A stretch of DNA of 64,000 nt from a virus: positions 32,001 through 96,000 of the IMG/VR virus record IMGVR_UViG_3300046786_000331. One strand, written 5' to 3'. Below the pieces are notes generated by a model. That model was not told the origin of the DNA, ran no database searches, and saw only the letters and a program-made list of their open reading frames with translations. The position numbers and the translations under genes are program-made. This document shows positions 27,657-43,263 of the stretch, piece after piece; within the stretch, counting starts at the first letter, position 1, and each line of letters starts with the position of its first letter.

Positions 27657-28217
27657 GTGAAAAAGATCGACGATTTTAACGCATCCGATAGAATTGGTGT
27701 AAAACTACTCGAAAATTCAGTACATTTCCTTACCGGAGAAATTACAGAAGAAAATGTAGAAGAATGTATAAAATGGATAGTCTTTGAAAATCTAGATACA
27801 TCCAAAGAAAAAATACTAACCTTATACATTAATTCATCGGGCGGAGATCTTTATCAAGCGTTTGCTCTAATTGATATCATGCGTAATAGTAATCACTACA
27901 TACGCACAATCGGAATTGGAAACATAATGAGCGCAGCTTTTCTAATCTTCACTGCCGGTACACAGGGAGAAAGATATATAGCTGCTAACACTGGAATTAT
28001 GTGTCATCAGTTTTCCGGTGGTGTCGAAGCCAAGTATCATGATATCAAGGCTGAGATGAAAGAAAATGAACTGTTAAATAAAAAGATGGTAGACATCTTG
28101 AAAGAAGCTACAGGTTTAACACCTAGTAGAATAAAAGCAAAGTTGCTACCAGCCAGTGATGTTTATCTCACAGCGCAAGAAGCACTTGACTTTAATGTGG
28201 CGGATCATTTACTATAA
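27657..28217 (+). CDS. clpP: ClpP-like protease subunit
   Basis: LYINSSGGD, MSAA (Ser), MCHQ (His), D.YLTAQEA. Confidence 0.9.
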   Translation: MKKIDDFNASDRIGVKLLENSVHFLTGEITEENVEECIKWIVFENLDTSKEKILTLYINSSGGDLYQAFALIDIMRNSNHYIRTIGIGNIMSAAFLIFTAGTQGERYIAANTGIMCHQFSGGVEAKYHDIKAEMKENELLNKKMVDILKEATGLTPSRIKAKLLPASDVYLTAQEALDFNVADHLL

Positions 28218-28225
28218 GGTGTAGC

Positions 28226-28471
28226 ATGGAAATTGTAAGTATCAATACAAAACGCAAAGAACAATTAATAGAAGAAGAACAAAAGAAAGCAATGTTAGAA
28301 GTCTTGGATCATATGAGAAAAAGTATTGAGGCAGGACAGATAAAAGAATTTGTGGCAGCAAGTATTGACGACGATGGACTAACACAGATTCATGTAGCGG
28401 CAATGGACTTGCCAGGCAGCGTTGGGTTATTTGAGATTGGAAAACATATTCTAATCGCCGGTGATGCATAA
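28226..28471 (+). CDS. hypothetical protein
   Basis: SD AAGG upstream. Confidence 0.7.
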   Translation: MEIVSINTKRKEQLIEEEQKKAMLEVLDHMRKSIEAGQIKEFVAASIDDDGLTQIHVAAMDLPGSVGLFEIGKHILIAGDA

Positions 28472-28508
28472 TTTGGCAAAATTGCCACATTATCTGGTAG
28501 TTTTTTAG

Positions 28509-28699
28509 TTGACTGCTAAATAAAACTATCATACAATGAGTACATGGTGTTTAGGATTGTTGAAAAATTTATTTGCCAGAATTGCAAATAGAGGTTGACA
28601 ACAGAACTAAATAAACTTATACTTAAGACATGTTGTTAATAACTGCCGCAGATAAAAATGTAAACAGGGGTTGACAGCAAGTCAGAAAGACGTTATAAT
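28509..28699 (+). promoter_or_regulatory. three tandem sigma70 promoters heading the tRNA region
   Basis: TTGACT-17-TACAAT (28509), TTGACA-17-TATACT (28595), TTGACA-17-TATAAT (28671). Confidence 0.85.
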
Positions 28700-28753
28700 A
28701 ATTACATACGCTGCATGGGGCAGTGTAGTAAAAAGATTTTAAGAGAAAGCAAA

Positions 28754-28906
28754 ATGCAATCTACTAATAGACAAATTATTAATACGATAGCCAAACAGGT
28801 TGGACATATGTCCGCCGGCTGGTTAGCGATTAATAGTCTATGTTCAGATCGCACACCGGAGGGCTATTTTAGCTCAGGGTTCTTGGAGGGTAGTGGTTAC
28901 GCTTAA
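28754..28906 (+). CDS. putative attenuator leader peptide (50 aa, all 20 amino acids)
   Basis: between promoters and terminator; 3' codons form the antiterminator strand. Confidence 0.65.
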   Translation: MQSTNRQIINTIAKQVGHMSAGWLAINSLCSDRTPEGYFSSGFLEGSGYA

Positions 28907-28940
28907 TTAAGCAAACAGCTACTAAAACTTTAGGAACCCT
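28876..28940 (+). promoter_or_regulatory. antiterminator hairpin
   Basis: AGGGTTCTTGGAG (28876-88) pairs with CTTTAGGAACCCT (28928-40), 13 bp including G-U. Confidence 0.7.
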
Positions 28941-28969
28941 AGGATTAAAACCCTGGGGTTTTTTGTTTT
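28933..28969 (+). terminator. intrinsic terminator (attenuator)
   Basis: GGAACCCTAGG-loop-CCTGGGGTTTT then TTGTTTT. Confidence 0.85.
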
Positions 28970-28982
28970 CTGGAAAGGGTAA

Positions 28983-29141
28983 ATGGATACAGAGACAAAA
29001 AAACTAAAGGAAGCTGAATGGTTTCGACAGCACGAATTGAACGATGATCAGTTAGAAAGACTAATTGAAAACAAGTTTATTAGAGCTCGTCAATATCATG
29101 AAGCGTTCTTAGCGAAAGAAAGGCAAGAAGAAATTGCCTAA
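28983..29141 (+). CDS. small charged protein (52 aa), first gene after attenuator
   Basis: manual translation MDTETKKLKEAEWF...EEIA; purine-rich RBS. Confidence 0.6.
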   Translation: MDTETKKLKEAEWFRQHELNDDQLERLIENKFIRARQYHEAFLAKERQEEIA

Positions 29142-29149
29142 TGGTAGAA

Positions 29150-29254
29150 TAGTGTGAATAAGTGGAAACGAGGTCCACGCTCCGCACTCAAAACATGGAG
29201 CAAACGGGCGGACTAGTGGATGGCTTATCTTCTTGTAGATAAAAAAATACTAGT
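29150..29254 (+). ncRNA. structured RNA, possible pseudoknot
   Basis: GTGGA/TCCAC and GCTCC/GGAGC hairpins; loop GCACT complementary to upstream AGTGT. Confidence 0.4.
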
Positions 29255-29327
29255 TATTAAAGCAAATTGGTACCCGCTACTTTTGACGTAGAACGCGGCT
29301 GCATAGCAGGACAGTTTGTTTTAATAA
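29254..29327 (+). ncRNA. long-stem element E1
   Basis: 16-bp terminal stem; CTGC-ATA-GCAG hairpin. Confidence 0.5.
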
Positions 29328-29380
29328 ACACTTTCCACTTCACGCCTGAACAGCGGACGACATCATAGAGGGAAAGTGTT
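29327..29380 (+). ncRNA. long-stem element E2
   Basis: AACACTTTCC/GGAAAGTGTT stem. Confidence 0.4.
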
Positions 29381-29389
29381 AACAACTAT

Positions 29390-29474
29390 GGAGTCGTAGG
29401 AAAATTGGTAACCCCAGTGGACTGTAAATCCGCCGCCTCTGGCACTGCTGGTTCAACTCCAGCCGGCTCCACCA
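29390..29474 (+). tRNA. tRNA-Tyr(GTA)
   Basis: cloverleaf, long V arm, CCA. Confidence 0.93.
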
Positions 29475-29477
29475 TAG

Positions 29478-29506
29478 TTGACTTTTTACAAGTTCGGTGT
29501 TATACT
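29478..29506 (+). promoter_or_regulatory. internal sigma70 promoter
   Basis: TTGACT-N17-TATACT. Confidence 0.7.
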
Positions 29507-29537
29507 ACTAACACTTAGAAACTTTAGAAAGTCTAAA

Positions 29538-29732
29538 ATGCAAACACATCGAGTTTATGTTGAAGTTGGTTACTATGCAGGTGGAGGTACCGATGGTGCT
29601 TTCATTACTGAAAGTCTTAATCAATTTGAAACAACTGTAAATGCAAATACTTCAGGTGACGCTGTTCGTATTGCACAAGCACAGTTCGGTGGACAAACAC
29701 GTTGTCGCGTAACATATCGCGGCACAATTTAA
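29538..29732 (+). CDS. hypothetical protein
   Basis: ORF after internal promoter. Confidence 0.6.
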   Translation: MQTHRVYVEVGYYAGGGTDGAFITESLNQFETTVNANTSGDAVRIAQAQFGGQTRCRVTYRGTI

Positions 29733-29734
29733 TT

Positions 29735-29810
29735 GCTTCGTTAGCTCAATTGGGAGAGCGCGACACTGTCACTGTCGAGGTAAGGGGATCGAAACCCCTA
29801 CGAGGCGCCA
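29735..29810 (+). tRNA. tRNA-Asp(GTC)
   Basis: cloverleaf, CCA. Confidence 0.92.
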
Positions 29811-29815
29811 AACAT

Positions 29816-29892
29816 GGGTCGTTAGTTCCAATTGGCAGAACGTTGGTCTCCAAAACCAAATGTTGGGCGTTCGAATCGCTCACGGCCCGCCA
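29816..29892 (+). tRNA. tRNA-Trp(CCA), U11-A24 D stem
   Basis: cloverleaf, loop CTCCAAA. Confidence 0.92.
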
Positions 29893-29898
29893 ACTTAT

Positions 29899-29973
29899 GC
29901 ACGGTTCGTCTATCGGTCAGGACATTAGGTTTTCATCCTAAGAAGAGGGGTTCGATTCCCCTACCGTGTTCCA
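29899..29973 (+). tRNA. tRNA-Glu(TTC)
   Basis: cloverleaf, CCA. Confidence 0.9.
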
Positions 29974-29978
29974 GTTAT

Positions 29979-30056
29979 GCACAGGTGGCAGAGTGGCCCA
30001 ATGCAACGGATTGCAAATCCGTAAAGCCGTGAGTTCGAATCTCACCCTGTGCTCCA
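29979..30056 (+). tRNA. tRNA-Cys(GCA)
   Basis: cloverleaf, U73, CCA. Confidence 0.92.
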
Positions 30057-30057
30057 A

Positions 30058-30155
30058 GTTAGATCTGGCAGGGGTAAACCTACATAGTATGGTTGACGGG
30101 ATGGAAGGTCCCTTAGCGAACTACACGCACCACACGCCCTGCGGAATGTAGTAAC
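30058..30155 (+). ncRNA. multi-hairpin RNA with C-AUA-G triloop
   Basis: GCAGGG/CCCTGC closing stem; AACCTAC-ATA-GTATGGTT. Confidence 0.4.
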
Positions 30156-30162
30156 AATTTAT

Positions 30163-30239
30163 ACCCCAGTGACGCAACTGGTAGACGTGCTTCTCTCAAA
30201 AGGAAGATGCTGAAGGTTCAAATCCTTCCTGGGGTACCA
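30163..30239 (+). tRNA. tRNA-Leu(CAA), short variable loop
   Basis: loop CTCAAAA, 5-nt V loop, CCA. Confidence 0.85.
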
Positions 30240-30244
30240 ATAAT

Positions 30245-30336
30245 GGAAAGTAATGCAGCTGGGATGGTCCGGCGACTAGCCTTGAAAACTAGGTTCTCAG
30301 AAATGGGATGGGGTTCGACTCCTCTGCTTTCCGCCA
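30245..30336 (+). tRNA. tRNA-Ser(TGA)
   Basis: long V arm, G73, CCA. Confidence 0.9.
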
Positions 30337-30340
30337 AATT

Positions 30341-30415
30341 TGCCGTGTAGCTCAGAGGAAGAGCACTCGCTTGATAAGCGATAGGTCGACATTTCGAAAT
30401 TGTCCATGGCAACCA
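30341..30415 (+). tRNA. tRNA-Ile(GAT)
   Basis: cloverleaf, CCA. Confidence 0.88.
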
Positions 30416-30419
30416 AGTT

Positions 30420-30633
30420 TTGTTAAAGTGTCAGCAAGAGAATGTCACGCTATAAAGGTTTCTTCGAAGGACTGATATAGTTAAAGGGGACGGGTTCAAC
30501 TCCCGGCTGCTCGGAAGAGCGGTGCAGATTGGTTGCTAACTGGACTAGTATCCCAAGTGACGTACCGAGTCCTAGCCGGCTTTATATACATAGGTGAATG
30601 GTTGCTATAACGATGGGGCAACATCTTTAACAA
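30420..30633 (+). ncRNA. ~210-nt structured RNA
   Basis: TTGTTAAAG/CTTTAACAA closing stem, internal T-arm-like GGGTTCAACTCCC. Confidence 0.45.
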
Positions 30634-30642
30634 ATTTAATTT

Positions 30643-30715
30643 CTGGGTGTAGGATAATGGTAGTCGACGAAGCTTGGATCTTCGAGGCGCAGGTTCGATT
30701 CCTGCCACCCAGACC
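30643..30715 (+). tRNA. tRNA-Pro(TGG)
   Basis: cloverleaf, CCA. Confidence 0.88.
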
Positions 30716-30919
30716 ATTTATGTCATAGTGTAATGAGAATGCACGGGATCGCCATTATAAAATCCTTCGGGTGATGGAACAAGGTTCAGGTACGGTAAGA
30801 ACCCGTAACGACAAAATTTTCTGCAGAAAGAACAGAGACACGGTGGTCCTAAAGGTGTGGGGACTATAAAAGCCGACAAACGTCTGGGGTACAACTCCAT
30901 ACGCACCGACAAATTCTAT

Positions 30920-30998
30920 TCCGTGAAATCCAAGCATGGTGCAAGGACCTGACTGTTAATCAGTGATTAGGTGAGTTCGATCCTCACACACGGAGCCA
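30920..30998 (+). tRNA. tRNA-Asn(GTT)
   Basis: loop CTGTTAA, G73, CCA. Confidence 0.85.
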
Positions 30999-31093
30999 TT
31001 AATAAAGCTCATCAGAACTTCTGTGGGCATCCGCTTCCTCACATAGTGCAGGAGGCGCAACGGTTCGATTCCGCTGATGTGTTTTATTAATGG
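30996..31093 (+). ncRNA. long-stem element E3
   Basis: 20-nt inverted arms, CAC-ATA-GTG hairpin, T-arm CGGTTCGATTCCG. Confidence 0.6.
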
Positions 31094-31166
31094 GGGGAGC
31101 CGAGGGCGGCGGCGTTGCTTTGCAAGCATCGTGACTACAAGGGTTCGATACCCTGGTCCTCCACCA
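31093..31166 (+). tRNA. atypical tRNA-Ala(TGC), 4-nt D loop
   Basis: G3-U70, loop TTTGCAA, CCA. Confidence 0.7.
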
Positions 31167-31171
31167 AGAAT

Positions 31172-31248
31172 GTCTGGGTCTGACATGGTGTTTCTGAAGA
31201 GGTTGATCACTCTGAGGAGAATGTGGTTCGATACCACGCCCGGCGCCA
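31172..31248 (+). ncRNA. tRNA-like RNA with extended anticodon arm
   Basis: T arm GTGG-TTCGATA-CCAC, CCA end, arm with tandem GA/GA. Confidence 0.55.
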
Positions 31249-31250
31249 AC

Positions 31251-31394
31251 TTTCGAAGATAGACGTACTGCTTGAGTCCCAAGTAACTGGCGCTACGAGC
31301 GCATTGGTTTGACAGTGAAGTATGGTTTGTTTAAACTCGCGGCTACGAGACAATCCAGTGAGTCCTCCCAGGAGGATAGTTGGGCACTTCGAAA
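31251..31394 (+). ncRNA. ~145-nt structured RNA
   Basis: TTTCGAAG/CTTCGAAA closing stem, nested helices. Confidence 0.45.
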
Positions 31395-31402
31395 ACCTAT
31401 AT

Positions 31403-31477
31403 ACTCCGGTAGTTTACTGGCTAGAACGCTGCCCTTTCAAGGCGGAGAAGAGGGATCGATACCCTTTCGGAGTACCA
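31403..31477 (+). tRNA. tRNA-Glu(TTC), second copy
   Basis: cloverleaf, CCA. Confidence 0.88.
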
Positions 31478-31503
31478 CAATTTTTAGTTCAAAGGAGAAC
31501 GAT

Positions 31504-31524
31504 ATGAAACGTGCTAAACGTTAG
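31504..31524 (+). other. minigene MKRAKR* with strong SD and downstream hairpin
   Basis: AAGGAG-N6-ATG; hairpin 31524-31563. Confidence 0.5.
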
Positions 31525-31590
31525 TGTCGCTTCTAGATCCCCCGTATGGTCTAGTTGTGACACGTTAATAAACAATTAATACGAACACAA

Positions 31591-31664
31591 CCTTCGCAAA
31601 CATTAAGGTGATGTAACTGGCTCTTAACCAGTAAAACTAGGATCGTTACCTAGGCGGAGGACCA
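31591..31664 (+). tRNA. tRNA-Lys(CTT)
   Basis: loop CTCTTAA; atypical T loop; CCA. Confidence 0.82.
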
Positions 31665-31667
31665 TAT

Positions 31668-31741
31668 GGGGGTGAAACTTTAAGGTGAAGTAACTGGCTT
31701 TTAACCAGTAAAACTCGGATCGTTCCCGAGCACCCCTACCA
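31668..31741 (+). tRNA. tRNA-Lys(TTT)
   Basis: loop CTTTTAA; atypical T loop; CCA. Confidence 0.82.
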
Positions 31742-31830
31742 TATGCAAACACATTCGAAGACCTATACATAGTATTAGGAAACGGATAGGCACGCCGGAG
31801 GACCTGGGCCTGAGTGTGTTTACATATGGT
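31738..31830 (+). ncRNA. long-stem element E4
   Basis: ACCATATGCAAACACATTC/GAGTGTGTTTACATATGGT; TAC-ATA-GTA hairpin. Confidence 0.6.
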
Positions 31831-31879
31831 TAATGTTATCTGCAGGTAACATCCATATTGGGGCGTAATTAACCTCAAG

Positions 31880-31950
31880 AACTCGTAGTCGTCTAATGGT
31901 AGGATACGTGCGTAGCGTGATGGTTGTTCGAATCGACCCTACAATGAGTT
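31880..31950 (+). pseudogene. degenerate tRNA-like element
   Basis: D and T arms recognisable, shrunken anticodon arm, no CCA. Confidence 0.45.
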
Positions 31951-32036
31951 TGCAACAAACAAGTCGGCATGTGTGTCCACCGTGCATTAACCGACGATAA
32001 ACAAAGCTAGGGCAAGCGCCAGTTAACGGTGGAGCT

Positions 32037-32161
32037 CATATAAAAACACACTAGTGCATTATAGTGAATCAGGTCGCTCCTGTGGAAGCTATCCATGTAT
32101 CAATTGCCCTGGTGGGAAAGGTCGACGAGTGCGGTTCGATTCCGTAGTGTGTTTTTATATG
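32037..32161 (+). ncRNA. long-stem element E5
   Basis: perfect 17-bp CATATAAAAACACACTA/TAGTGTGTTTTTATATG; T arm adjacent to 3' arm. Confidence 0.65.
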
Positions 32162-32235
32162 GTGATGTAGTTCAGTGGTAGAACACCTCCTTCATACGGA
32201 GACTGTCGGCGGTTCAAGTCCGTCCATCACTACCA
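32161..32235 (+). tRNA. tRNA-Met(CAT) elongator (Ile2 not excluded)
   Basis: cloverleaf, CCA. Confidence 0.85.
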
Positions 32236-32242
32236 GATTTGT

Positions 32243-32316
32243 TGGTCTATGGTGTAATGGTAACACAACAGACTTTGACTCTGTCGTTCCAGGTTCGAGC
32301 CCTGGTAGGCCTGCCA
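32243..32316 (+). tRNA. tRNA-Gln(TTG)
   Basis: cloverleaf, CCA. Confidence 0.92.
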
Positions 32317-32325
32317 ACAAACAAT

Positions 32326-32417
32326 GCCAGCGAGACTTGGTAGTCAGAGAGTCCTTATAAGACTTTTAGCGCCAGATTAGCGTTCTTGAGTGGGTTCGAT
32401 TCCCACCGCTGGTACCA
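32326..32417 (+). tRNA. atypical tRNA with TAT anticodon (Ile AUA), long variable region
   Basis: loop CTTATAA, 4-nt D loop, T arm, CCA. Confidence 0.7.
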
Positions 32418-32421
32418 ATAT

Positions 32422-32496
32422 CGGTCCTTAGTTCAATGGATAGAATGCCATGCTTCGAACTTGGAGATGTGGGTTCGATTCCTGCAGGACCGGCCA
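32422..32496 (+). tRNA. tRNA-Arg(TCG)
   Basis: cloverleaf, CCA. Confidence 0.9.
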
Positions 32497-32503
32497 AAGA
32501 TAT

Positions 32504-32578
32504 GCGCCCGTCGTATAGTGGAGAATACACGATCCTACGAAGTTCGGAACGGTGGTTCGATTCCATCCGGGCGCACCA
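32504..32578 (+). tRNA. tRNA-Arg(ACG)
   Basis: cloverleaf, CCA. Confidence 0.92.
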
Positions 32579-32583
32579 ACAAT

Positions 32584-32657
32584 GTTGTTCCTAGTGTAGT
32601 GGCTGCACACCTGTCTGTGAAACAGGTAGAGAGGGTTCGATTCCCCGGTTCAACCCA
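32584..32657 (+). tRNA. tRNA-His(GTG)
   Basis: G-1/C73, two acceptor mismatches, CCA. Confidence 0.82.
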
Positions 32658-32667
32658 AGGAAATATT

Positions 32668-33087
32668 ATGGAACAAATGAAAACATACAATACACTAAAA
32701 GGTTCCGTGAAAACATTCGAAGAACTCTTAGGCCGTACATTGTACAAAGTAACAGCAGATGGCGAAGAATTAACTTTGTATCTATCCGAAACAAACTATG
32801 TAAGATTTTATCACAGCCAAGACTGTTGCGAACATGTGTATATCGAAGATATCTGCGGTGACTTACAAGACTTAGTCGGAGCACCCCTGTTAATAGCAGA
32901 AGAAGTATCAGACGAGTTATACGAAGCAGAACATACACCAGATTATTCCGAATCATACACATGGACATTCTATAAGTTTGCTACCCGAAAAGGATATGTA
33001 GACGTTCGGTGGTTTGGTAGTTCAAATGGTTATTATTCTGAAAGTGTAAGTGTTGATTTTGTTGACACCACCTTAGAAGAAGATTAG
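32668..33087 (+). CDS. conserved phage hypothetical protein
   Basis: HSQDCCEHVYIEDI...TWTFYKFAT...SNGYYSE; SD AAGGA. Confidence 0.85.
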   Translation: MEQMKTYNTLKGSVKTFEELLGRTLYKVTADGEELTLYLSETNYVRFYHSQDCCEHVYIEDICGDLQDLVGAPLLIAEEVSDELYEAEHTPDYSESYTWTFYKFATRKGYVDVRWFGSSNGYYSESVSVDFVDTTLEED

Positions 33088-33161
33088 GATGATTATTTCA
33101 GTGGTAGAATAACTCCTCGACACGGAGTAGGTCGCAAGTTCGAACCTTGCATCATCCACCA
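33087..33161 (+). tRNA. tRNA-Val(GAC), C33
   Basis: loop TCGACAC, CCA. Confidence 0.82.
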
Positions 33162-33162
33162 T

Positions 33163-33254
33163 ATATGTAAACACACTAGTAAAAGAACGAACATAGTATC
33201 TTAGGGCCTAGCCTGCGGCATTGTCGGATGACGGTGGCTAGTGTGTTTTCATAT
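33163..33254 (+). ncRNA. long-stem element E6
   Basis: ATATGTAAACACACTAG/CTAGTGTGTTTTCATAT. Confidence 0.6.
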
Positions 33255-33256
33255 GT

Positions 33257-33332
33257 GCCGCGGTAGCTCATCAGGTAGAGCAGCAGACTGAAAATCTGTG
33301 TGTGGCTGGTTCGAGTCCAGCTCGTGGCACCA
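33257..33332 (+). tRNA. tRNA-Phe(GAA)
   Basis: cloverleaf, CCA. Confidence 0.93.
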
Positions 33333-33335
33333 TAT

Positions 33336-33419
33336 GCGACTGTGGTGTAATTGGTAGCCACAGCAGACTTAAAATCTGCCGCCTTGTGCGTACCGGTTCG
33401 AGTCCGGTCAGTCGCACCA
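33336..33419 (+). tRNA. tRNA-Leu(TAA)
   Basis: long V arm, CCA. Confidence 0.93.
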
Positions 33420-33450
33420 AATATATTTTCACATTGTTAACCAAAATATG

Positions 33451-33522
33451 TTGACAGGTGATAAATTAGAACATATACTATATAGATGCTGTTAACAAAA
33501 CAGTGTAAATGTTCTTTAAAAA
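33451..33522 (+). promoter_or_regulatory. sigma70 promoter followed by boxA-like site
   Basis: TTGACA-N17-TATACT; TGTTCTTTAAAA at ~33510. Confidence 0.7.
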
Positions 33523-33539
33523 TTCGTAAAGGTATTTTT

Positions 33540-33623
33540 GCCCCGGTGGTGTAATGGTAGCCACGCTGGTCTTAGAAGCCAGTGGAGAGATCCGTGTCGG
33601 TTCGAGTCCGACCTGGGGCACCA
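33540..33623 (+). tRNA. tRNA-Leu(TAG)
   Basis: long V arm, CCA. Confidence 0.93.
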
Positions 33624-33727
33624 TATCAAAGTACATAAATGCGTAGGCCACGCAGATGTAGCGGATTACAGCTTTGCCCTGTGCAGAGTAGACAGGTTCA
33701 ATTCCTGTGAATGTACTTTGATATGGT
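33620..33727 (+). ncRNA. long-stem element E7 (cloverleaf-like interior)
   Basis: perfect 17-bp stem; three hairpins plus T arm ACAGG-TTCAATT-CCTGT. Confidence 0.65.
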
Positions 33728-33740
33728 TTAAAAAATTAAA

Positions 33741-34627
33741 GGGTAGTTTATTATCCTGTAGTGTATGGTTCGCCCAGCATTACGAAGAATAAGTGAGGTG
33801 ACTCACCCAAAGCTAGAATGCCTACATACTAGCGCCAGCAATGGTTCATGTAAACAAGCCTGCTCACTGTCGCGAGGCAGCGTTCACTGATAAGACCGGT
33901 GGATGTAACAGCAAAGCTGATGTATGGGGAAGAATGTGTATCGACTGGCCCGCAAGGGAACCAGGGTGCATGAAAAGTAACAGGTGGTGCTGACTTCCAT
34001 ACAAAACCAATCAGTCAGTTGGTATGAGAAAGGGTAGTGTATTGGTTCGAAGGGTCGCACCTAAGAGCTCGTATGCAATGTAAATGGTTAGTGGGTTGTA
34101 GCAATACAGCACATCGATCGTGAAACATCACTGAGTAGCTCGCGAGGCAAAAGGTATGTGGTGAGTTGTATTTCGTATTCCAAAAGATTATGAAGCAACT
34201 GAGGCAGCTCATCGCGGTAGGTTCAATGTAGATCAATGGTAGATCGTCTGTCTTTTAAACAGAATGCTGTGGGTTCAAATCCCATCATTAACAAAAATGC
34301 AAAGACTGCCTCGGTTATGTGTGAAAAGTATCTAATACTTGACACGCAAGTGAATCAAGTCTAATGAAGCTCGCAAGGTAACATTAGTTTATACTGGAAG
34401 TTTCGTAAGTGGTTAGCGCCGCTGAATAGCTCGCAAGGTTAACGGGATAGATGGTGTAGAATAGCACATAACGACAAGCCTACTGCCTGGCTTTAAAAAC
34501 GGCGATGCTGTAAGCAGACTAGGATACCGCAAGGGTCTTAGTGGATGTCTAGAGAACGTATGCTCGCAAGGTGTACGGTAATGCTAGAGGTGCTTATGGC
34601 TTAAGGTGTAATCTCAACCTTAGGCAC
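33741..34627 (+). ncRNA. probable GOLLD-type large ncRNA with embedded tRNA-Lys-like element
   Basis: ~890 nt with no credible ORF, many GCAA/GNRA hairpins, within phage tRNA array. Confidence 0.6.
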
Positions 34628-34728
34628 TATTATAAAACACATTGGGTTGTTGGTCTTACTTCGATAGTAAGGACAGCGGTGACTGAAGTACAAGGTCGAT
34701 ACGTTGCTACAGTGTGTTTCATAATAGT
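34626..34728 (+). ncRNA. long-stem element E8
   Basis: ACTATTATAAAACACATTG/CAGTGTGTTTCATAATAGT. Confidence 0.6.
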
Positions 34729-34732
34729 TTGT

Positions 34733-34807
34733 GCCTGGATAGCTCAGGGGGAGAGCGTCTGCTTTACACGCAGAGGGTCCGCGGTTCGAAACCGTGTCCA
34801 GGTACCA
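34733..34807 (+). tRNA. tRNA-Val(TAC)
   Basis: cloverleaf, CCA. Confidence 0.93.
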
Positions 34808-34813
34808 AATATT

Positions 34814-34901
34814 GGAGCATTGGCCGACCGGTTAAGGCAACAGATTGCTAATCTGTCATTCAGCAATGGGTGAGTAGGTTCGATTCCTACATGCTCCGCC
34901 A
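34814..34901 (+). tRNA. tRNA-Ser(GCT)
   Basis: long V arm, CCA. Confidence 0.93.
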
Positions 34902-34923
34902 GATACAAAAAGGAAAACTAAAA

Positions 34924-35109
34924 ATGATGAAACCAGGCAAAACATTTAAACTCAGCAAGCCTACTAAAACTATGCTTGCATTAGGCGGCTTCCGCAATCA
35001 GGAAGATCGTAATCGTTGGAAACGTGCAATGATTGATGCAGAACTTTGCAGTGCTGTACAGCCAAAGCGTGAAAAGCGTCCAAGCGGTCCACAAGGAAAT
35101 ACCCAGTAA
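34924..35109 (+). CDS. small basic hypothetical protein
   Basis: SD AAGGA; MMKPGKTFKLSK. Confidence 0.7.
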   Translation: MMKPGKTFKLSKPTKTMLALGGFRNQEDRNRWKRAMIDAELCSAVQPKREKRPSGPQGNTQ

Positions 35110-35369
35110 TGGTAGCCCGTAACGATATTACCGGCGATGTTATCCAAACAAAGGGTGCATCTTCTTCTTATCGTGATAACTACGATAACATTTTTAGGAA
35201 AGATAAAATGCAAGTTAGAGTACAAGAAAACGAGTCAGAAATTGGCAAGTGTGGTTGTGGTCGCAGTCCAACTGGAAAATGTATCGGGTGGCATGGTCTA
35301 ACCGAAGCCGACTTTCAATCTAAGTTAGCCAACTTTATGGCTGAAGAACAATTGAAAGAAGATAAGTAA
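35109..35369 (+). CDS. small protein with CDGSH-like Fe-S motif
   Basis: CGCGRSPTGKCIGWH. Confidence 0.6.
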   Translation: MVARNDITGDVIQTKGASSSYRDNYDNIFRKDKMQVRVQENESEIGKCGCGRSPTGKCIGWHGLTEADFQSKLANFMAEEQLKEDK

Positions 35370-35375
35370 AACACT

Positions 35376-35451
35376 GGGGGTATAGCTCATCTGGTAGAGC
35401 AGGTGCTTTGCAAGCATCAGGTGGCAGGTTCGAGTCCTGTTGCCTCCACCA
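35376..35451 (+). tRNA. tRNA-Ala(TGC)
   Basis: canonical, G3-U70, CCA. Confidence 0.94.
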
Positions 35452-35503
35452 AGCACTCTCCATGACACACGGAGTATAATGTGATAAGTTGTGTGTTAAC
35501 TTT

Positions 35504-35577
35504 GCCCTTATAGTTAAATGGTATAACGACGGTTTTGTAATCCGTAATTTGCAGTTCGATTCTGTGTAGGGGCACCA
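35504..35577 (+). tRNA. tRNA-Thr(TGT)
   Basis: cloverleaf, CCA. Confidence 0.92.
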
Positions 35578-35586
35578 AAGAATTAT

Positions 35587-35662
35587 TCCCTAGTAGCTCA
35601 GCGGTAGAAGCACCTGACTGTTAATCAGGGTGTCGGTGGTTCGATCCCACCCTGGGGAGCCA
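35587..35662 (+). tRNA. tRNA-Asn(GTT), second copy
   Basis: cloverleaf, CCA. Confidence 0.93.
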
Positions 35663-35694
35663 GTTTTGCTAGTTTCTTAAAACTAGCCAGTGAA

Positions 35695-35898
35695 GTGAAA
35701 GGTAGATGAGGATAGACAAAACCATTTGGCTTCATGCTAAATGAACAATACTCCAGACACCCTTGAAAAGTGTTCGTGTTGTTGTGCTCCGGCCCTAAAG
35801 ATTTTGTTATTTGATTTCCGGAAATATAATGGCCTCTGTGGATTGCTTTTTGAACATTGTAATTTGCACATTGTCCGGTCTATTACTTGACCTTTCAT
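35695..35898 (+). ncRNA. ~200-nt structured non-coding element
   Basis: TGAAAGGT...ATAGAC pairs with GTCTAT...ACCTTTCA. Confidence 0.4.
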
Positions 35899-35942
35899 GG
35901 ATCTGTTGTTATAATAGTTTATACAAACACAAAGGACATAAC

Positions 35943-36188
35943 GTGGCTAGATATACATCAGAAGCAGCAGTAGAAGCAATTGGAAACAGATTTAACCTAG
36001 TGCTAGCCGCTAGTCAACGAACCCGTGAACTTAAACGAGGTCATGCACAACTTGTAGACGGTAAAGACGCAAGTTTTAACGTTACAGCTTTGCGTGAAAT
36101 CGAAGCAGGCAAATATACAATGAAAGACTACTTGGATTCGATTCCAAGAAAACAAAAAGGACGTAGAAATGAATTTGACATTACGTAA
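35943..36188 (+). CDS. rpoZ: RNA polymerase omega subunit-like
   Basis: MARYTSEAAVEAIGNRFNLVLAASQRTREL...VTALREIEAG; SD AAGGA; TTGACC-17-TATAAT upstream. Confidence 0.88.
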   Translation: MARYTSEAAVEAIGNRFNLVLAASQRTRELKRGHAQLVDGKDASFNVTALREIEAGKYTMKDYLDSIPRKQKGRRNEFDIT

Positions 36189-36744
36189 GGCAAACGCTAT
36201 CCAGAATAGCATCAACGAGGCAATCAAAGGCATCGAGATTAAGACAACTGTAGAACTAAACGAGTTCCAAGCAGTTGAGGCAGAGTTGCAAAAAGCAAAC
36301 ACAACATTGTTTGCAAATGACGCTCGCCGTCAAAAGCTGTTGTTGGCTTTGTATAACATTCGCGGGCTAGTTGGCACTGCGAACGCTAGTGCAGGTATTG
36401 ACCTGAGCCTAGCAAAGGCAGCGTTTATTGATAAACGCATTGCACAGCTCGACGAGCTAGCAAAGGCAGAAGTTATCACTGATCTTGCAGTGATTACGGG
36501 TAAGCTAGACAAGATTAAAAATGACAAGAGTGAAACTGCTCGTAGTCGTATCTACGGATACAATGACACAGTTTCAACTAGTGTTGTAAGTGCTGAGCAA
36601 TCAGCATCGATTAAGAATGAGATTAAAAATCTCAAGAAGCAAAAACAAAAACTCAATGACGAAGTTCTTGAGTTAAACATCAAGACAGAGATTCCTTTGT
36701 CAGATGATGTAGTGGCAACACTAACAGCTGAAGGCTTAATCTAA
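36169..36744 (+). CDS. conserved coiled-coil hypothetical protein
   Basis: helical, strongly biased codons. Confidence 0.8.
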   Translation: MNLTLRKANAIQNSINEAIKGIEIKTTVELNEFQAVEAELQKANTTLFANDARRQKLLLALYNIRGLVGTANASAGIDLSLAKAAFIDKRIAQLDELAKAEVITDLAVITGKLDKIKNDKSETARSRIYGYNDTVSTSVVSAEQSASIKNEIKNLKKQKQKLNDEVLELNIKTEIPLSDDVVATLTAEGLI

Positions 36745-36940
36745 CAGACCCCGGGTTCCGAGCAACCGTTATTGCTCGGGGTTATTGAATAGACCAAACT
36801 ATTCACTGTGCGTAGGATCTACAGCAAGGCCTGTTCGGCGACTTGAGAATATCCTAGGTAGACGAATAGTCCAACCAAAAGGGACAACGTGGACGGAGTA
36901 AACGCCCAGTTTAGGGCTCCTGTGGTGGGAGTGGCTAAAC

Positions 36941-37058
36941 ACTTTATTAGAATACATTAGGAGTTTGTCTGGAATCCAGTATCAAGCAATTGATATCCAG
37001 AACGGAGTAACGTGGGCAAGATGGATTTTGCTACGCCGACAGTGTATTCTAATAAAGT
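36941..37058 (+). ncRNA. long-stem element E9
   Basis: ACTTTATTAGAATACAT/GTGTATTCTAATAAAGT. Confidence 0.55.
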
Positions 37059-37069
37059 TAAATAGTTGT

Positions 37070-37633
37070 ATGTCGACAGATAGATTTTACAAACAAACTA
37101 CAATTCCTGCTCCTAGTGTAGATTACAAAACAATATGGAATGTAGATCCTAAAGATCCTGCTGACACAAATCCAAGATGGTTAACTTATCCTAAGGATAG
37201 TAAAATCTGGAATGACGACATATTAAATAGATTAAAAACTGTTGGACTAAAACCGAGACTTATAAGAGTCTTTAGATGGAAACCCAACAGTGTGTTTCCT
37301 TGGCATATCGACGGTTCAGTAAATGAAATTACTGAATTTGCAATTAATTGGGTATATGAAGGCAGTGGAATTATTCAGTGGAATTCAAGTTTAGAATTAC
37401 CTAAACCTGCTGAAAAAAATTACCATCTTGCTTACGGGTCTTTTAATGGTAAAGCCGAAGATAAATTTGAAGCAGAAGCATTAGGACATGGATGTGTAGT
37501 TAACACTACTATTCCACACAGAGTTTTGAATTTAAGTGACGTTCATAGAATTACTGTTTCAATACAGTTTGGAAATGAATTCACTTATAGTGAAACTGTA
37601 GAGAAATTAAAATCCTGCGGTTTCATAGAATAA
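37070..37633 (+). CDS. cupin/2OG-Fe(II) oxygenase-like protein
   Basis: WHIDG...PHRV...RITVSI (HxD...H). Confidence 0.75.
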   Translation: MSTDRFYKQTTIPAPSVDYKTIWNVDPKDPADTNPRWLTYPKDSKIWNDDILNRLKTVGLKPRLIRVFRWKPNSVFPWHIDGSVNEITEFAINWVYEGSGIIQWNSSLELPKPAEKNYHLAYGSFNGKAEDKFEAEALGHGCVVNTTIPHRVLNLSDVHRITVSIQFGNEFTYSETVEKLKSCGFIE

Positions 37634-37638
37634 GTTAT

Positions 37639-37712
37639 AGCGGGTAGGGCGGCCACCACTCCAGTCTCATAAGCTCGGAGCATCCCAGGTTCAAATCCTG
37701 GACCCGCATCCA
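37639..37712 (+). tRNA. atypical initiator-like tRNA-Met(CAT)
   Basis: 1-72 mismatch, reduced D arm, extended anticodon stem, CCA. Confidence 0.65.
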
Positions 37713-37717
37713 TATAT

Positions 37718-37794
<77 letters not shown>

Positions 37795-37810
37795 TCAACA
37801 TAAAGGCAAT

Positions 37811-37993
37811 ATGACTAAAGAAGAAGAAAAAGCAGCAACAGATTTAGCACTTGAAGAATTCTTTGCAAAAGGCGGCGTGGTTCAAAAATTAAAACCTAAT
37901 CAAAGTGGAAGAGTAGAAGGTGCAGGTTATTCACCTTGGTCTAAGAAACCCTCTACTAGTCCGTTAGCAAATCCTCCTGAAGACGAAGAATAA
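37811..37993 (+). CDS. small protein, possible SutA-like RNAP-binding motif
   Basis: ALEEFFAKGGVVQKL. Confidence 0.55.
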   Translation: MTKEEEKAATDLALEEFFAKGGVVQKLKPNQSGRVEGAGYSPWSKKPSTSPLANPPEDEE

Positions 37994-38068
37994 CTTGCTG
38001 TAGTTCAATGGATAGAACGGCTCTCTCCTAAAGAGTAGATCCAGGTTCGATTCCTGGTGGCAGGACCA
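37994..38068 (+). tRNA. tRNA-Arg(CCT)
   Basis: loop CTCCTAA, CCA. Confidence 0.9.
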
Positions 38069-38082
38069 GCTATAAATATGTT

Positions 38083-38916
38083 ATGGAATTTTCTTCTCTA
38101 GCATACGCAAAAATAAATCTTGAATTTGATCGAGAAATATTCATTCAAGAATATGATGCACATATCCTTCCGCACACTCGTCAACTGATGAACGGCGAAG
38201 GCGGTATGTTAGCAACTAAAGAATTAAATAAAATTTGGAACATGGTTCCTGAAGAAGAATACAGCACTGCTGATTCTTGGGAACAGCCAGGAGATGTTAC
38301 AACATTCAAAGCTATCATTAAAGGTCGTCAAATGTGGGATTTTGTACAAATCCTAACACTAAAAACTACCGATGGTGATCATCCTTTAATTAAACGTATG
38401 GCTGAAAAGGGTAGCGTAGGTTTACGCAATGAAACACTTGGCCGTGAATACTTTATTAAAGAACAATTTAAAGATTTAAAAATAGTTAAATGGATTTACG
38501 ATAGTTTACCATTAACTATGATTAACAGTATACAATGTGTATCTTTGCCACCGAACTCTTTCTCTACAATTCATAGAGATGGCAAAGGATTGATATCTGA
38601 AAATTTCAGTGGCGGAGTAAACAAAGTTTACAAGTCTGGTTTTGTTGTTATTAACATAAACATAACAGACGGTGGTGTTCCGTTATATTGGGCACCGGAT
38701 CATGCTCCTAGAGCTTGCGAAAAAGCAAACGATCCTGTATACTTAACTAACGATTATTTGTTACATGGTGTTCCAATTTGTACATCAAGACGTAGACAAA
38801 TAAGAGTTACTGGAATTCCAACACAGGAATTAGAGAGTTTGATAGATAAAGATACAATTTTTGATCTAGGCGAAAATTATAAATTTGCCGAGTTAAAGGA
38901 TCATTATAAATATTAA
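38083..38916 (+). CDS. oxygenase-like protein (HxD...H), paralogue of 39663-40487
   Basis: IHRD...NDYLLHGVP...RRRQIRV. Confidence 0.75.
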   Translation: MEFSSLAYAKINLEFDREIFIQEYDAHILPHTRQLMNGEGGMLATKELNKIWNMVPEEEYSTADSWEQPGDVTTFKAIIKGRQMWDFVQILTLKTTDGDHPLIKRMAEKGSVGLRNETLGREYFIKEQFKDLKIVKWIYDSLPLTMINSIQCVSLPPNSFSTIHRDGKGLISENFSGGVNKVYKSGFVVININITDGGVPLYWAPDHAPRACEKANDPVYLTNDYLLHGVPICTSRRRQIRVTGIPTQELESLIDKDTIFDLGENYKFAELKDHYKY

Positions 38917-38919
38917 CAT

Positions 38920-38993
38920 GCGGGGTTCGTATAGTGGTAATACCTTAGCCTTCCAAGCTAATGCTGAGAGTTCGATTCTCTTACCCCGCTCCA
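38920..38993 (+). tRNA. tRNA-Gly(TCC)
   Basis: cloverleaf, CCA. Confidence 0.94.
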
Positions 38994-38997
38994 TTTT

Positions 38998-39573
38998 ATG
39001 CACACAGTAATAGACCAAAACGATATTTTTCGAAAGTTTAATTTTAGTTCCGTGATTACACCGGAAGATAATCAAGAAGCCATAGGCATTATAAAAAGTA
39101 TTATTGCCGACGGAAACTATTTTACTAATTCTCCAAAATATCAAACAAAAGAAAATATTTTTGCTAGACAGGAATCTGTATGGTTAAAGTATAGAATGAG
39201 TTTTTTGTTTAGTGTGTTTATGTACTTGGGTCGTGAAGTTAAGGTATCAAATATGATGGCCTGGAGTTTCATGACAAATCTCGAAGGTGCAGAAGATAGA
39301 GAAAAATTGTGGCATAATCATTGGCATCCACAAAATCCAAATAACAAAATGTTAAGCGGAATCTTTTATCTTCACATTCCAGAGAATGTACAAGACAGAG
39401 ATTATTGCGGAACAGAAATGGCTCCCAATGGTCCTACCGGTGACGGTAAATACTTCGTTAAACCAACTGATGGAAATTGGTTAGTTTATCCAAGTAATCA
39501 ATGGCATAGACCCGGCATTGTGCAAAGCAATGATTATAGGTTTATTTTAGCTGTTGATGTAGAATATCAATAA
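38998..39573 (+). CDS. putative 2OG-Fe(II) oxygenase
   Basis: WHNH, LSGIFYL, YPSNQWH, RFILA. Confidence 0.78.
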   Translation: MHTVIDQNDIFRKFNFSSVITPEDNQEAIGIIKSIIADGNYFTNSPKYQTKENIFARQESVWLKYRMSFLFSVFMYLGREVKVSNMMAWSFMTNLEGAEDREKLWHNHWHPQNPNNKMLSGIFYLHIPENVQDRDYCGTEMAPNGPTGDGKYFVKPTDGNWLVYPSNQWHRPGIVQSNDYRFILAVDVEYQ

Positions 39574-39574
39574 T

Positions 39575-39650
39575 GCGGGCGTAGCTCAGTTGGTAGAGCA
39601 TTACCTTGCCAAGGTAAATGTCGAGAGTTCGAACCTCTTCGCCCGCTCCA
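39575..39650 (+). tRNA. tRNA-Gly(GCC)
   Basis: cloverleaf, CCA. Confidence 0.95.
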
Positions 39651-39662
39651 ATAAATACCTTT

Positions 39663-40487
39663 ATGAATTTTTCAACACTTGCTCATGCAAAACTAAATCT
39701 AAGTTTTGATCAAGAGCTTTTCATAAAGGAATATGACAAGCGCATATATCCTAAATCATTCCCCATTTCTGCGGGAGTTGAATCTATCAATCGTACCATC
39801 AAATTGAATCAAACATGGAACATGGTTGATCCTAATATCTACGAACAAATCAATACAAACAGAGTTGACGAAAAGGGTGTGTATACTCCTATCGATAGAG
39901 GTCGCAAATCTTGGGTCATGCGACAACTGCTAGAACTAGATACTACAGAGATAACAAATCCTGTACTATTAAAATTTGCATCTATCGGAGGTGTTGGGTT
40001 GCGCAATGCTGCATACCAACATAATTTTAAAGTTAAAGAAGATTGTAAAGATTTACAGATTGTTGATTGGATTTATAAAAATTTACCTTTTGAAAAAATA
40101 GTAAGTATACATTGTGTTGCTATTGACCCAGATGGGTTTGCTCCGATACATAGAGATGACAAGAGTTTATTTGACAATAAGTCTAGTGTAGGCACTAATT
40201 TGTTCTACAAAAATAACTTTGTAATCATTAACATAAACGTCAGCAGTGGCGGTGTTCCTTTGTGTTGGGGACTTGACATGCCTAATGCAGATAACTGCCA
40301 TAAAGCTGACGATGCTGTTTATCTAACTAATGATTATTTCTTACACGGTGTTCCGCAGGTTACATCTCGAAGAAGACAAATACGTGTATCCGGAATTCCA
40401 AAACCAGAAATGTACGAACTATTTGATAAACAATCTATAGTTGACGTAGGCAACGATTATATTTTTAATCCTTTGTATCCAGGTTAA
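39663..40487 (+). CDS. oxygenase-like protein (HxD...H), paralogue of 38083-38916
   Basis: IHRD...NDYFLHGVP...RRRQIRV. Confidence 0.75.
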   Translation: MNFSTLAHAKLNLSFDQELFIKEYDKRIYPKSFPISAGVESINRTIKLNQTWNMVDPNIYEQINTNRVDEKGVYTPIDRGRKSWVMRQLLELDTTEITNPVLLKFASIGGVGLRNAAYQHNFKVKEDCKDLQIVDWIYKNLPFEKIVSIHCVAIDPDGFAPIHRDDKSLFDNKSSVGTNLFYKNNFVIININVSSGGVPLCWGLDMPNADNCHKADDAVYLTNDYFLHGVPQVTSRRRQIRVSGIPKPEMYELFDKQSIVDVGNDYIFNPLYPG

Positions 40488-40515
40488 ATAGTAGCACTTA
40501 AAGGAAACATATTAA

Positions 40516-43109: not shown

Positions 43110-43184
43110 CTGGCCATCGTATAATGGATAATACAACTCTCTTCTAAAGAGTGAATGTGGGTTCAATTCCTGCTGGCCGGACCA
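43110..43184 (+). tRNA. tRNA-Arg(TCT)
   Basis: loop CTTCTAA, CCA. Confidence 0.92.
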
Positions 43185-43189
43185 GACAT

Positions 43190-43263
43190 GCTCTCATAGT
43201 TAAATGGTAGAACGCCTCTTTGGTATGGAGGTGATGAAAGTTCGATTCTTTCTGAGAGCACCA
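43190..43263 (+). tRNA. tRNA-Thr(GGT)
   Basis: cloverleaf, CCA. Confidence 0.9.

Follow-up and report, generated by a model that had tools for sequence, protein, structure and literature searches.

A candidate leader-peptide attenuator with a complete amino-acid alphabet at the head of a phage tRNA array

Why should a gene of only 50 codons at the head of a phage tRNA array encode every one of the 20 amino acids, and what might it do there? The question is raised by a locus in a 64,000-nucleotide (nt) stretch of viral DNA, positions 32,001 to 96,000 of the IMG/VR virus record IMGVR_UViG_3300046786_000331, which is the whole of the DNA analysed here and is referred to below as the window. At this locus, three tandem promoter-like sites are followed by a short open reading frame (ORF), which we call the leader, then by an intrinsic terminator and a long array of tRNA genes (Table 1). 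The record itself is 145.7 kb long and about 41% complete according to CheckV, and related contigs of up to 340–378 kb indicate that it derives from an uncultured jumbo phage. The public runs that contain the stretch are freshwater or aquatic metagenomes. A preliminary description of this DNA had proposed that the leader controls read-through into the array, and promoter and terminator scans placed the three promoters, the 50-codon ORF and the terminator where that description had them. From the analysis below, we conclude that the element is probably a ribosome-mediated leader-peptide transcription attenuator that heads the phage tRNA array and senses the supply of every aminoacyl-tRNA. The anatomy of the element, its conservation, the selection on its amino-acid coverage, the covariation of its hairpin, its thermodynamic switching and its constant link to a tRNA array were all observed.

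In the window, the set of 20 amino acids is complete by codon 39 of the leader, which draws on 38 distinct codons, including all four Gly codons, five of the six Ser codons, and AGA, ATA, CTA, CCG and ACG; a recount agreed with the preliminary description on both figures. There is no tandem run of codons, and the rare residues are present in about one copy each. The chance of finding 20 out of 20 amino acids, which that description had suggested calculating, is 0.4–0.5% for 39 codons of this genome's composition and about 3% for 50; under its codon usage, 50 codons would include 38 or more different ones with a probability of 0.13%. Among the other ORFs of 41–53 codons in the same DNA (n = 1,645), 2.8% have all 20 amino acids. 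By itself, the composition of the leader in the window is unusual, not decisive, for a single ORF chosen post hoc.

Relatives of the leader were collected in several ways. A first set consisted of peptide relatives in 21 viral contigs, which share the gene order ClpP-like, orf81, leader, orf2. A scan for the conserved terminator motif yielded at least 120 stretches, in which candidate leaders were picked by geometry alone, as the ORF ending 20–45 nt ahead of each terminator. This gave 124 ORFs of 30–70 codons, of which 96 matched a profile built from the first set; of these 96, 83 were unique. (Leaders that were too divergent for the profile have 19–20 different residues in 30–52 codons and still head tRNA arrays.) A second, independent sample came from a peptide-similarity search of a collection of 5.8 billion proteins, which returned 338 relatives with 114 new unique peptides. 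All of these database relatives are hypothetical proteins, except for one with an evidently wrong automatic FlgF label. No Pfam family matches the leader peptide, no Pfam domain was found in the 338 database relatives, and searches of GenBank phages by blastn and tblastn gave no match to the leader. The closest ClpP-like matches among GenBank phages do not exceed 42% identity, and no tRNA array lies next to the homologue in Ralstonia phage RsoM2USA. A Shine-Dalgarno-like tract precedes the start codon in all of the first-set homologues listed, and the nearly invariant terminator sits 25–38 nt past the stop codon in the relatives.

The preliminary description had suggested asking of homologues whether coverage of the 20 amino acids and codon diversity are kept while the peptide sequence drifts, and this is the pattern that emerged. 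All 20 amino acids are present in 71 of the 83 unique leaders (86%) and 19 in a further 10, whereas only 2.4–3.8% of composition-matched random peptides of the same lengths have all 20. In the independent sample, 90 of the 114 peptides (79%) have all 20; the remaining 24 have 19, and 20 of these lack only Cys. The peptide itself drifts, with a median ratio of nonsynonymous to synonymous substitution rates (dN/dS) of 0.68 in the N-terminal part. When the leaders were reduced to 24 representatives with less than 50% identity, 17 of the 24 still had all 20 amino acids. Cys was missing from 4 of these representatives compared to 15 predicted from genome frequencies, His from none compared to 9.4 expected, and internal Met from none compared to 8.5 expected.

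The rare residues are kept, but relocate within the leader. Their copy number has a variance far below the mean; for Cys the mean is 0.98 and the variance 0.14 copies per leader, with Cys absent from 7 of the 83 leaders and its sole copy found in 19 different alignment columns. His is never absent from the 83 leaders and its sole copy is spread over 13 alignment columns; Tyr is likewise never absent, with its sole copy in eight columns. Internal Met (beyond the start codon) is never absent from the 83 leaders, where it occupies seven columns, and is absent once from the independent sample. Such a pattern would be expected if the sensing part of the leader had to include, at any position, at least one codon per amino acid. 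Judged from the sequences, the relocating sole Cys, His, Met and Tyr codons are an unusually clean case of selection on composition, not on sequence.

The same holds within codon families. Both Ser boxes are represented in all 84 leaders examined, Arg CGN in 83 and Arg AGR in 74, Leu TTR in 79 and Leu CTN in 74, and the Ile codon ATA in 72. In 78 of the 84, there are more distinct codons than the peptide sequence and the codon usage of the phages would predict. The leaders strongly avoid T-ending codons (GCT 0.06 vs. 0.33, ACT 0.07 vs. 0.36) and favour codons that the long genes of these phages rarely use (GGG, ACG, GCG, CGG and AGG). Part of this bias may come from shared ancestry and RNA constraints; we considered both a tuning of stalling sensitivity and RNA constraint as what it may reflect. 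All 20 amino acids are reached in about 38 codons starting at least 6 nt ahead of the 5' arm of the antiterminator hairpin described below in 63 of the 84 members, and the Glu of a conserved DRTPE sequence is usually the last new residue to complete the 20.

The RNA is as distinctive as the peptide. The 270-nt leader RNA folds far below shuffled controls (z = -7.8), and the dominant fold is a three-tier hairpin at 28876–28940, with an outer stem of 13 bp and inner tiers surrounding the stop codon. The outer stem of this minimum-energy fold, 28876–28888 with 28928–28940, is the 13-bp pairing that the preliminary description had noted as overlapping the 5' arm of the terminator. Its 3' arm ends in ACCCT (28936–28940), which is also the base of the terminator stem beside the U tract; we refer to this hairpin as the antiterminator. 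The hairpin was called in relatives on a set of 81 unique sequences, in all of which the bases before and into the terminator ACCC pair with ORF codons 10–28 nt ahead of the stop codon, and the stop codon lies within the hairpin. The hairpins have energies of -15 to -35 kcal/mol (mostly -20 to -35), and the terminators of about -9.5 to -16 kcal/mol (mostly -13 to -16).

RNAalifold applied to a plain MAFFT alignment returned only the near-invariant terminator, with the variable tiers of the hairpin out of register. Covariation was instead assessed with pair tables anchored on the terminator, by a swap test, and by counting pairs in the outer stem, which is in register. In the swap test, chimeras were made from the 5' half of one member and the 3' half of another; cognate hairpins averaged -24.2 kcal/mol compared to -18.1 kcal/mol for the chimeras, and the cognate hairpin was better in 79 of 81 cases. 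In the outer stem, 97.2% of cells were paired, compared to 92.7% in shuffles, and 40 cells had changed on both sides, compared to 12.6 expected; none of 500 shuffles reached either observed value. Shifting the partner by 1–3 columns dropped outer-stem pairing to 15–64%. The mutually exclusive hairpins proposed for the window are predicted in all 81 relatives, and the alternative pairing is kept and covaries. The GGGTCC/GGACCC motif of the hairpin is read in different frames by different clades, as Gly-Phe in the window and as Arg-Val elsewhere. The C-terminal tails of the peptides differ between clades because this tail is constrained as RNA.

Such strong structure would also suit an ORF that is not translated at all, in which case the locus would yield a structured non-coding RNA or act as a constitutive partial terminator, with a coding appearance that is accidental. 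We regard this as very improbable. The frame is open in every member, compared to 8 of 84 and 0 of 84 for the other two frames; indels in the leader alignment are in frame, the Shine-Dalgarno-like tract is conserved, and the conserved 20-amino-acid property exists only through the genetic code. No Rfam family, T-box included, matched positions 28000–29389 at E ≤ 1.

Switching between the two hairpins was examined by folding the 81 sequences with an imposed ribosome footprint, a comparison that is thermodynamic only. With no ribosome nearby, the antiterminator holds the ACCC in 78 of 81 sequences. All 81 form the terminator when the A site is placed five codons ahead of the stop codon, and with a stall at least 14 codons ahead of it, the antiterminator wins in 78 of 81. 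These predicted folds reproduce the earlier proposal that a ribosome completing the leader would mask the antiterminator and that an early stall would free it. They imply that read-through is the default state, and that termination needs a ribosome that keeps pace with the polymerase. The locus in this way combines a promoter-proximal ORF and ribosome-binding site, an intervening terminator, a covarying antiterminator and, in thermodynamic terms, a suitable placement of codons, all of which are features of an attenuator.

In the mechanism that we propose, transcription would begin at the tandem strong promoters, and the 50-codon leader would be the first gene to be transcribed. Its final codons would supply the 5' arm of the hairpin at 28876–28940, which would hold the ACCC base of the terminator stem. 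By default this hairpin would form, and RNA polymerase would read through into orf2 and the tRNA genes. A ribosome situated in the last 5–10 codons while the terminator is being made would melt the hairpin, allowing the terminator to form and transcription to stop. If the ribosome instead stalled at an earlier codon, from shortage of any aminoacyl-tRNA, the hairpin would stay intact and transcription of the tRNA genes would rise.

The switch would respond to the position of the ribosome whatever the cause of the delay, and this leaves room for an attenuator that reports general ribosome pace or availability, reflecting coupling, the stage of infection or inhibitors. A related alternative is that the terminated leader RNA acts in trans, like rnTrpL; the leader RNA is unusually structured, as the z value above attests, and attenuator-derived small RNAs are known (PMC6614838). 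No target for a trans-acting RNA was found, although no search aimed at one was made. Taken together, we find these alternatives rather unlikely. A pure sensor of pace requires no particular composition, whereas selection for each rare residue, for internal Met, for both boxes of the six-fold amino acids and for ATA suggests that the decoding of each tRNA species is sensed. We tentatively suggest that the proposed attenuator is a pan-amino-acid sensor at the level of tRNA isoacceptors, so that any tRNA species lost or uncharged would switch on the full tRNA set of the phage; this stronger reading is quite possible, although we stop short of favouring it outright. The leader would then be held to every amino acid, to an internal Met, to both boxes of Ser, Leu and Arg and to an ATA codon. 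Triggers could be starvation, phage-induced shutdown of the host or a host anticodon-nuclease defence, and restored decoding would switch the tRNA set off again, giving homeostatic feedback by translation itself.

One region of the leader is conserved in another manner. In 76 leaders, the codons of DRTPE include GAT in 76 of 76, ACA in 68, CCA in 66 and GAG in 66. The corresponding nucleotides (GATCGYACACCAGAG) show almost no synonymous change and lie 12–14 nt ahead of the antiterminator. The spacing between a nearly invariant Trp and the Pro of DRTPE varies between 10 and 15 residues across the leaders. We do not claim that this Trp...Pro arrangement is a strict arrest motif acting through the nascent peptide, as in TnaC or SecM, given the variable spacing and the conservation at synonymous sites. 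The Trp/DRTPE region may be a polymerase pause, a pairing partner or some other RNA element.

This near-invariance of Trp and DRTPE might instead mark an ordinary small phage gene with a terminator, encoding a micro-protein organised around these residues, and the hairpin would then stabilise the 3' end of an abundant short mRNA. Three strong promoters and a strong terminator would indeed give an abundant short transcript, and the terminator motif is general-purpose, being found also past capsid-like genes of related contigs. We nevertheless consider such a gene unlikely. It would leave unexplained the coverage of 20 amino acids through relocating residues, the dN/dS of about 0.68 together with a C-terminal third that is read in different frames, the hairpin that holds the base of the terminator, and the presence of the gene only at the heads of tRNA arrays. 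The peptide belongs to no Pfam family, and the conservation of DRTPE at synonymous sites points to a constraint at the level of RNA, not of protein. (The terminator motif, ACCCYRGG, a loop and CYRGGGTTTTT, also occurs past long capsid-like ORFs in contigs L081, L094, L150 and L175, which indicates a general strong terminator of this phage group that was co-opted by the leader.)

The claim that the module heads a tRNA region extends from the window to the family as a whole. Of the leader loci, 60 have at least 1.5 kb of downstream sequence, and a same-strand tRNA array follows in all 60. The first tRNA lies a median of 433 nt away, and about 13 tRNAs are found within 3 kb, with almost none upstream. 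Only some members have orf2, so what is constant downstream is the tRNA array. In 80 of 80 loci, the 300 nt upstream contain one to three strong promoter-like sites, compared to 0.15 per 300 nt elsewhere, and the median gap between the end of the last -10 element and the ATG is 51 nt in the relatives. Relatives whose ClpP gene precedes no array have no leader. (Contigs L037, L043, L044 and L068, whose ClpP is about 62% identical, have sparse tRNA genes among protein genes and no leader; in L037, a promoter lies directly ahead of tRNA-Leu.)

Contigs from four metatranscriptomes, belonging to four studies, cover the region, which is a weak hint only, as such contigs cannot give ends, strand or level. 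They start at 28554 in two of the metatranscriptomes and at 28566 in a third, where adaptor sequence is attached, and these starts, just past promoter 1, are again weak indications. Contig depth is greater over the leader than over the ClpP gene, although contigs do not provide expression levels. Contigs also cross the terminator into orf2, weakly suggesting read-through, with DNA carry-over as a possible cause. Contig breaks at 28919–28969 were rejected as 3' ends, as they are breaks of the assembly graph at a motif common to co-occurring relatives, and stretches that no contig covers carry no weight either way.

Several observations weigh against the proposed attenuator or limit its reach. 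Translation of the ORF, the role of ribosome position in deciding termination, and shortage of tRNA or amino acids as the natural signal are steps that we infer. When the A site reaches the stop codon, only 35 of 81 sequences favour the terminator, so the outcome at that point depends on kinetics. Cys is absent from about 8–18% of the leaders. The members of the family are related and the counts are not independent, although cluster representatives gave the same result. The preliminary description had cautioned that stalls at codons 36–39 or thereabouts might still mask the antiterminator, and this concern is real for the clade of the window, in which the codons for Tyr38 and Phe39 lie within about 12 nt of the antiterminator 5' arm; most relatives complete their set earlier. 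The Trp and DRTPE are kept beyond compositional need, at the nucleotide level including synonymous sites, from which we conclude that another function is probably hidden in this region. A few more distant relatives carry sparse tRNA sets without a leader. Finally, a scan confirmed internal promoter-like sites at 29478 and 33451, inside the tRNA array, as had been noted before, and judging by these sites only part of the array's transcription can depend on the leader.

How does the proposed element compare to known systems? The enterobacterial leaders trpL, hisL, leuL and pheL, and the multivalent thrL and ilvL, contain codon runs for one to three amino acids, control biosynthetic enzymes and use a 1:2 pause hairpin. 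The phage element resembles them in having a short leader ORF, in the choice of antiterminator or terminator by ribosome position, and in an output that is linked to the thing sensed. It differs in that each amino acid occurs about once, without any run, in that the output is tRNA genes, and in that the antiterminator 5' arm lies inside the coding region with the stop codon inside the hairpin. The preliminary description had compared the geometry to that of trp- and his-type attenuators, whose leaders repeat one amino acid. T-box leaders recognise a single specific uncharged tRNA by direct binding, with no translation involved, and their targets are mostly aminoacyl-tRNA synthetase and amino-acid genes; the phage leader would likewise sense tRNA charging through a choice between antiterminator and terminator. 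The ermC, cat, bmrB-bmrCD and vmlR leaders respond to drug-bound ribosomes, often through specific nascent-peptide motifs, and have resistance genes as their output. There too, stalling of a ribosome in a short leader ORF remodels the downstream RNA and induces the following genes; we know of no compositional completeness among these antibiotic-responsive stalling leaders. To our knowledge, leader-peptide attenuation has been found for amino-acid biosynthesis and for stress and resistance regulators, not for tRNA genes, and we know of no leader that is selected for a complete amino-acid alphabet. A full-text search of the literature found no description of such a leader, an absence that does not in itself establish novelty.

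The closest known system is the whiB7/wblC attenuator of mycobacteria and other Actinobacteria, where a promoter-proximal upstream ORF (uORF) is combined with alternative antiterminator and terminator hairpins (PMC10274678). A stall at any of many codons leads to read-through, the residues of the uORF set which amino acids are sensed, and single Trp or His codons suffice experimentally for sensing (PMC10274678). The Mycobacterium smegmatis uORF has every amino acid except Cys, while that of M. tuberculosis lacks several residues (PMC10274678). The phage leader would work alike, but has no sequence relationship to this system and is not a member of it. The whiB7 uORF is enriched in Ala and its coverage is not conserved, whereas the phage leader has 5.8% Ala and its completeness is under selection. 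In the whiB7 system, a cellular genome encodes the output, a stress transcription factor; the proposed output of the phage leader is a viral tRNA array.

The features of the locus are collected in Table 1. The terminator occurs once in the window.

Table 1. Coordinates of the leader module and the tRNA array that follows it, numbered from the first nucleotide of the window
Feature	Position	Strand	Description
Promoter-like site 1	28509–28537	+	TTGACT-17-TACAAT; sigma70 match 10/12
Promoter-like site 2	28595–28623	+	TTGACA-17-TATACT; sigma70 match 11/12
Promoter-like site 3	28671–28699	+	TTGACA-17-TATAAT; sigma70 match 12/12
Shine-Dalgarno-like purine-rich tract	28741–28749	+	AAGAGAAAG; ATG 5 nt downstream
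Leader ORF	28754–28906	+	50 codons and TAA; all 20 amino acids
Sensing part of leader	28754–28870	+	First 39 codons, holding all 20 amino acids
DRTPE codons	28847–28861	+	GATCGCACACCGGAG; kept at the nucleotide level family-wide
Antiterminator 5' arm	28876–28888	+	Within leader codons 41–45
Leader stop codon	28904–28906	+	Inside the inner tiers of the hairpin
Antiterminator 3' arm	28928–28940	+	Ends in ACCCT; these 5 nt double as the base of the terminator stem
Intrinsic terminator	28932–28969	+	Stem ACCCTAGG / CCTGGGGT, 8-nt loop, U tract
orf2	28983–29141	+	Small gene of 52 codons past the terminator; present in only some relatives
Non-coding spacer ahead of tRNA-Tyr	29142–29389	+	Moderately structured (z = -2.35)
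tRNA array	29390–43263	+	34 tRNA genes, all 20 amino acids; proposed regulated output

No Pfam match was found for orf2. The start of the spacer that follows it resembles the sequence directly 3' of the terminator in relatives without orf2, and the spacer has no Rfam match. Within the array, another promoter-like site (10/12, with TG) lies directly past tRNA-Tyr and is followed by an ORF of 64–84 codons (29478–29732, + strand). A terminator-like hairpin lies at 29703–29724, just ahead of tRNA-Asp, and this stretch may be a second small gene-plus-terminator unit.

The array also contains a full-length GOLLD RNA at 34158–34620 on the + strand (RF02032, 214.9 bits compared to a gathering score of 150, E = 5e-60), which encloses a tRNA-Lys(ttt) gene at 34222–34293. 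A 92-nt tRNA-Ile(tat) called by ARAGORN at 32326–32417 (+ strand) gave a sub-threshold tRNA-Sec-like Rfam match, with 33.8 bits compared to a gathering score of 47, as did positions 30245–30332 (+ strand), which have no ARAGORN call, with 32.2 bits against the same gathering score of 47. Both may be unusually long or variant tRNAs. Outside the array, a ClpP-family protease is encoded at 27657–28217 (+ strand), just upstream of the leader module (PF00574, E = 3e-32), and a DnaK-type Hsp70 at 3828–5711 (+ strand), with 64–70% identity to DnaK from records that are bacterial or may be contaminated; this ORF gave no help in placing the phage.

At about 460 nt, the element is compact; it has sigma70-type promoters and an intrinsic terminator, and should be testable in laboratory bacteria or in reconstituted transcription-translation. 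Another use could be as a natural reporter of any charged-tRNA shortage. If the proposed mechanism is correct, phage tRNA arrays would be regulated by demand, and would not simply be constitutive supplements to codon usage. It has been proposed that phage tRNAs counter tRNA-cleaving host defences (PMC10264068). A leader that responds to every aminoacyl-tRNA would bear on that proposed role and, more broadly, on why phages carry tRNAs.

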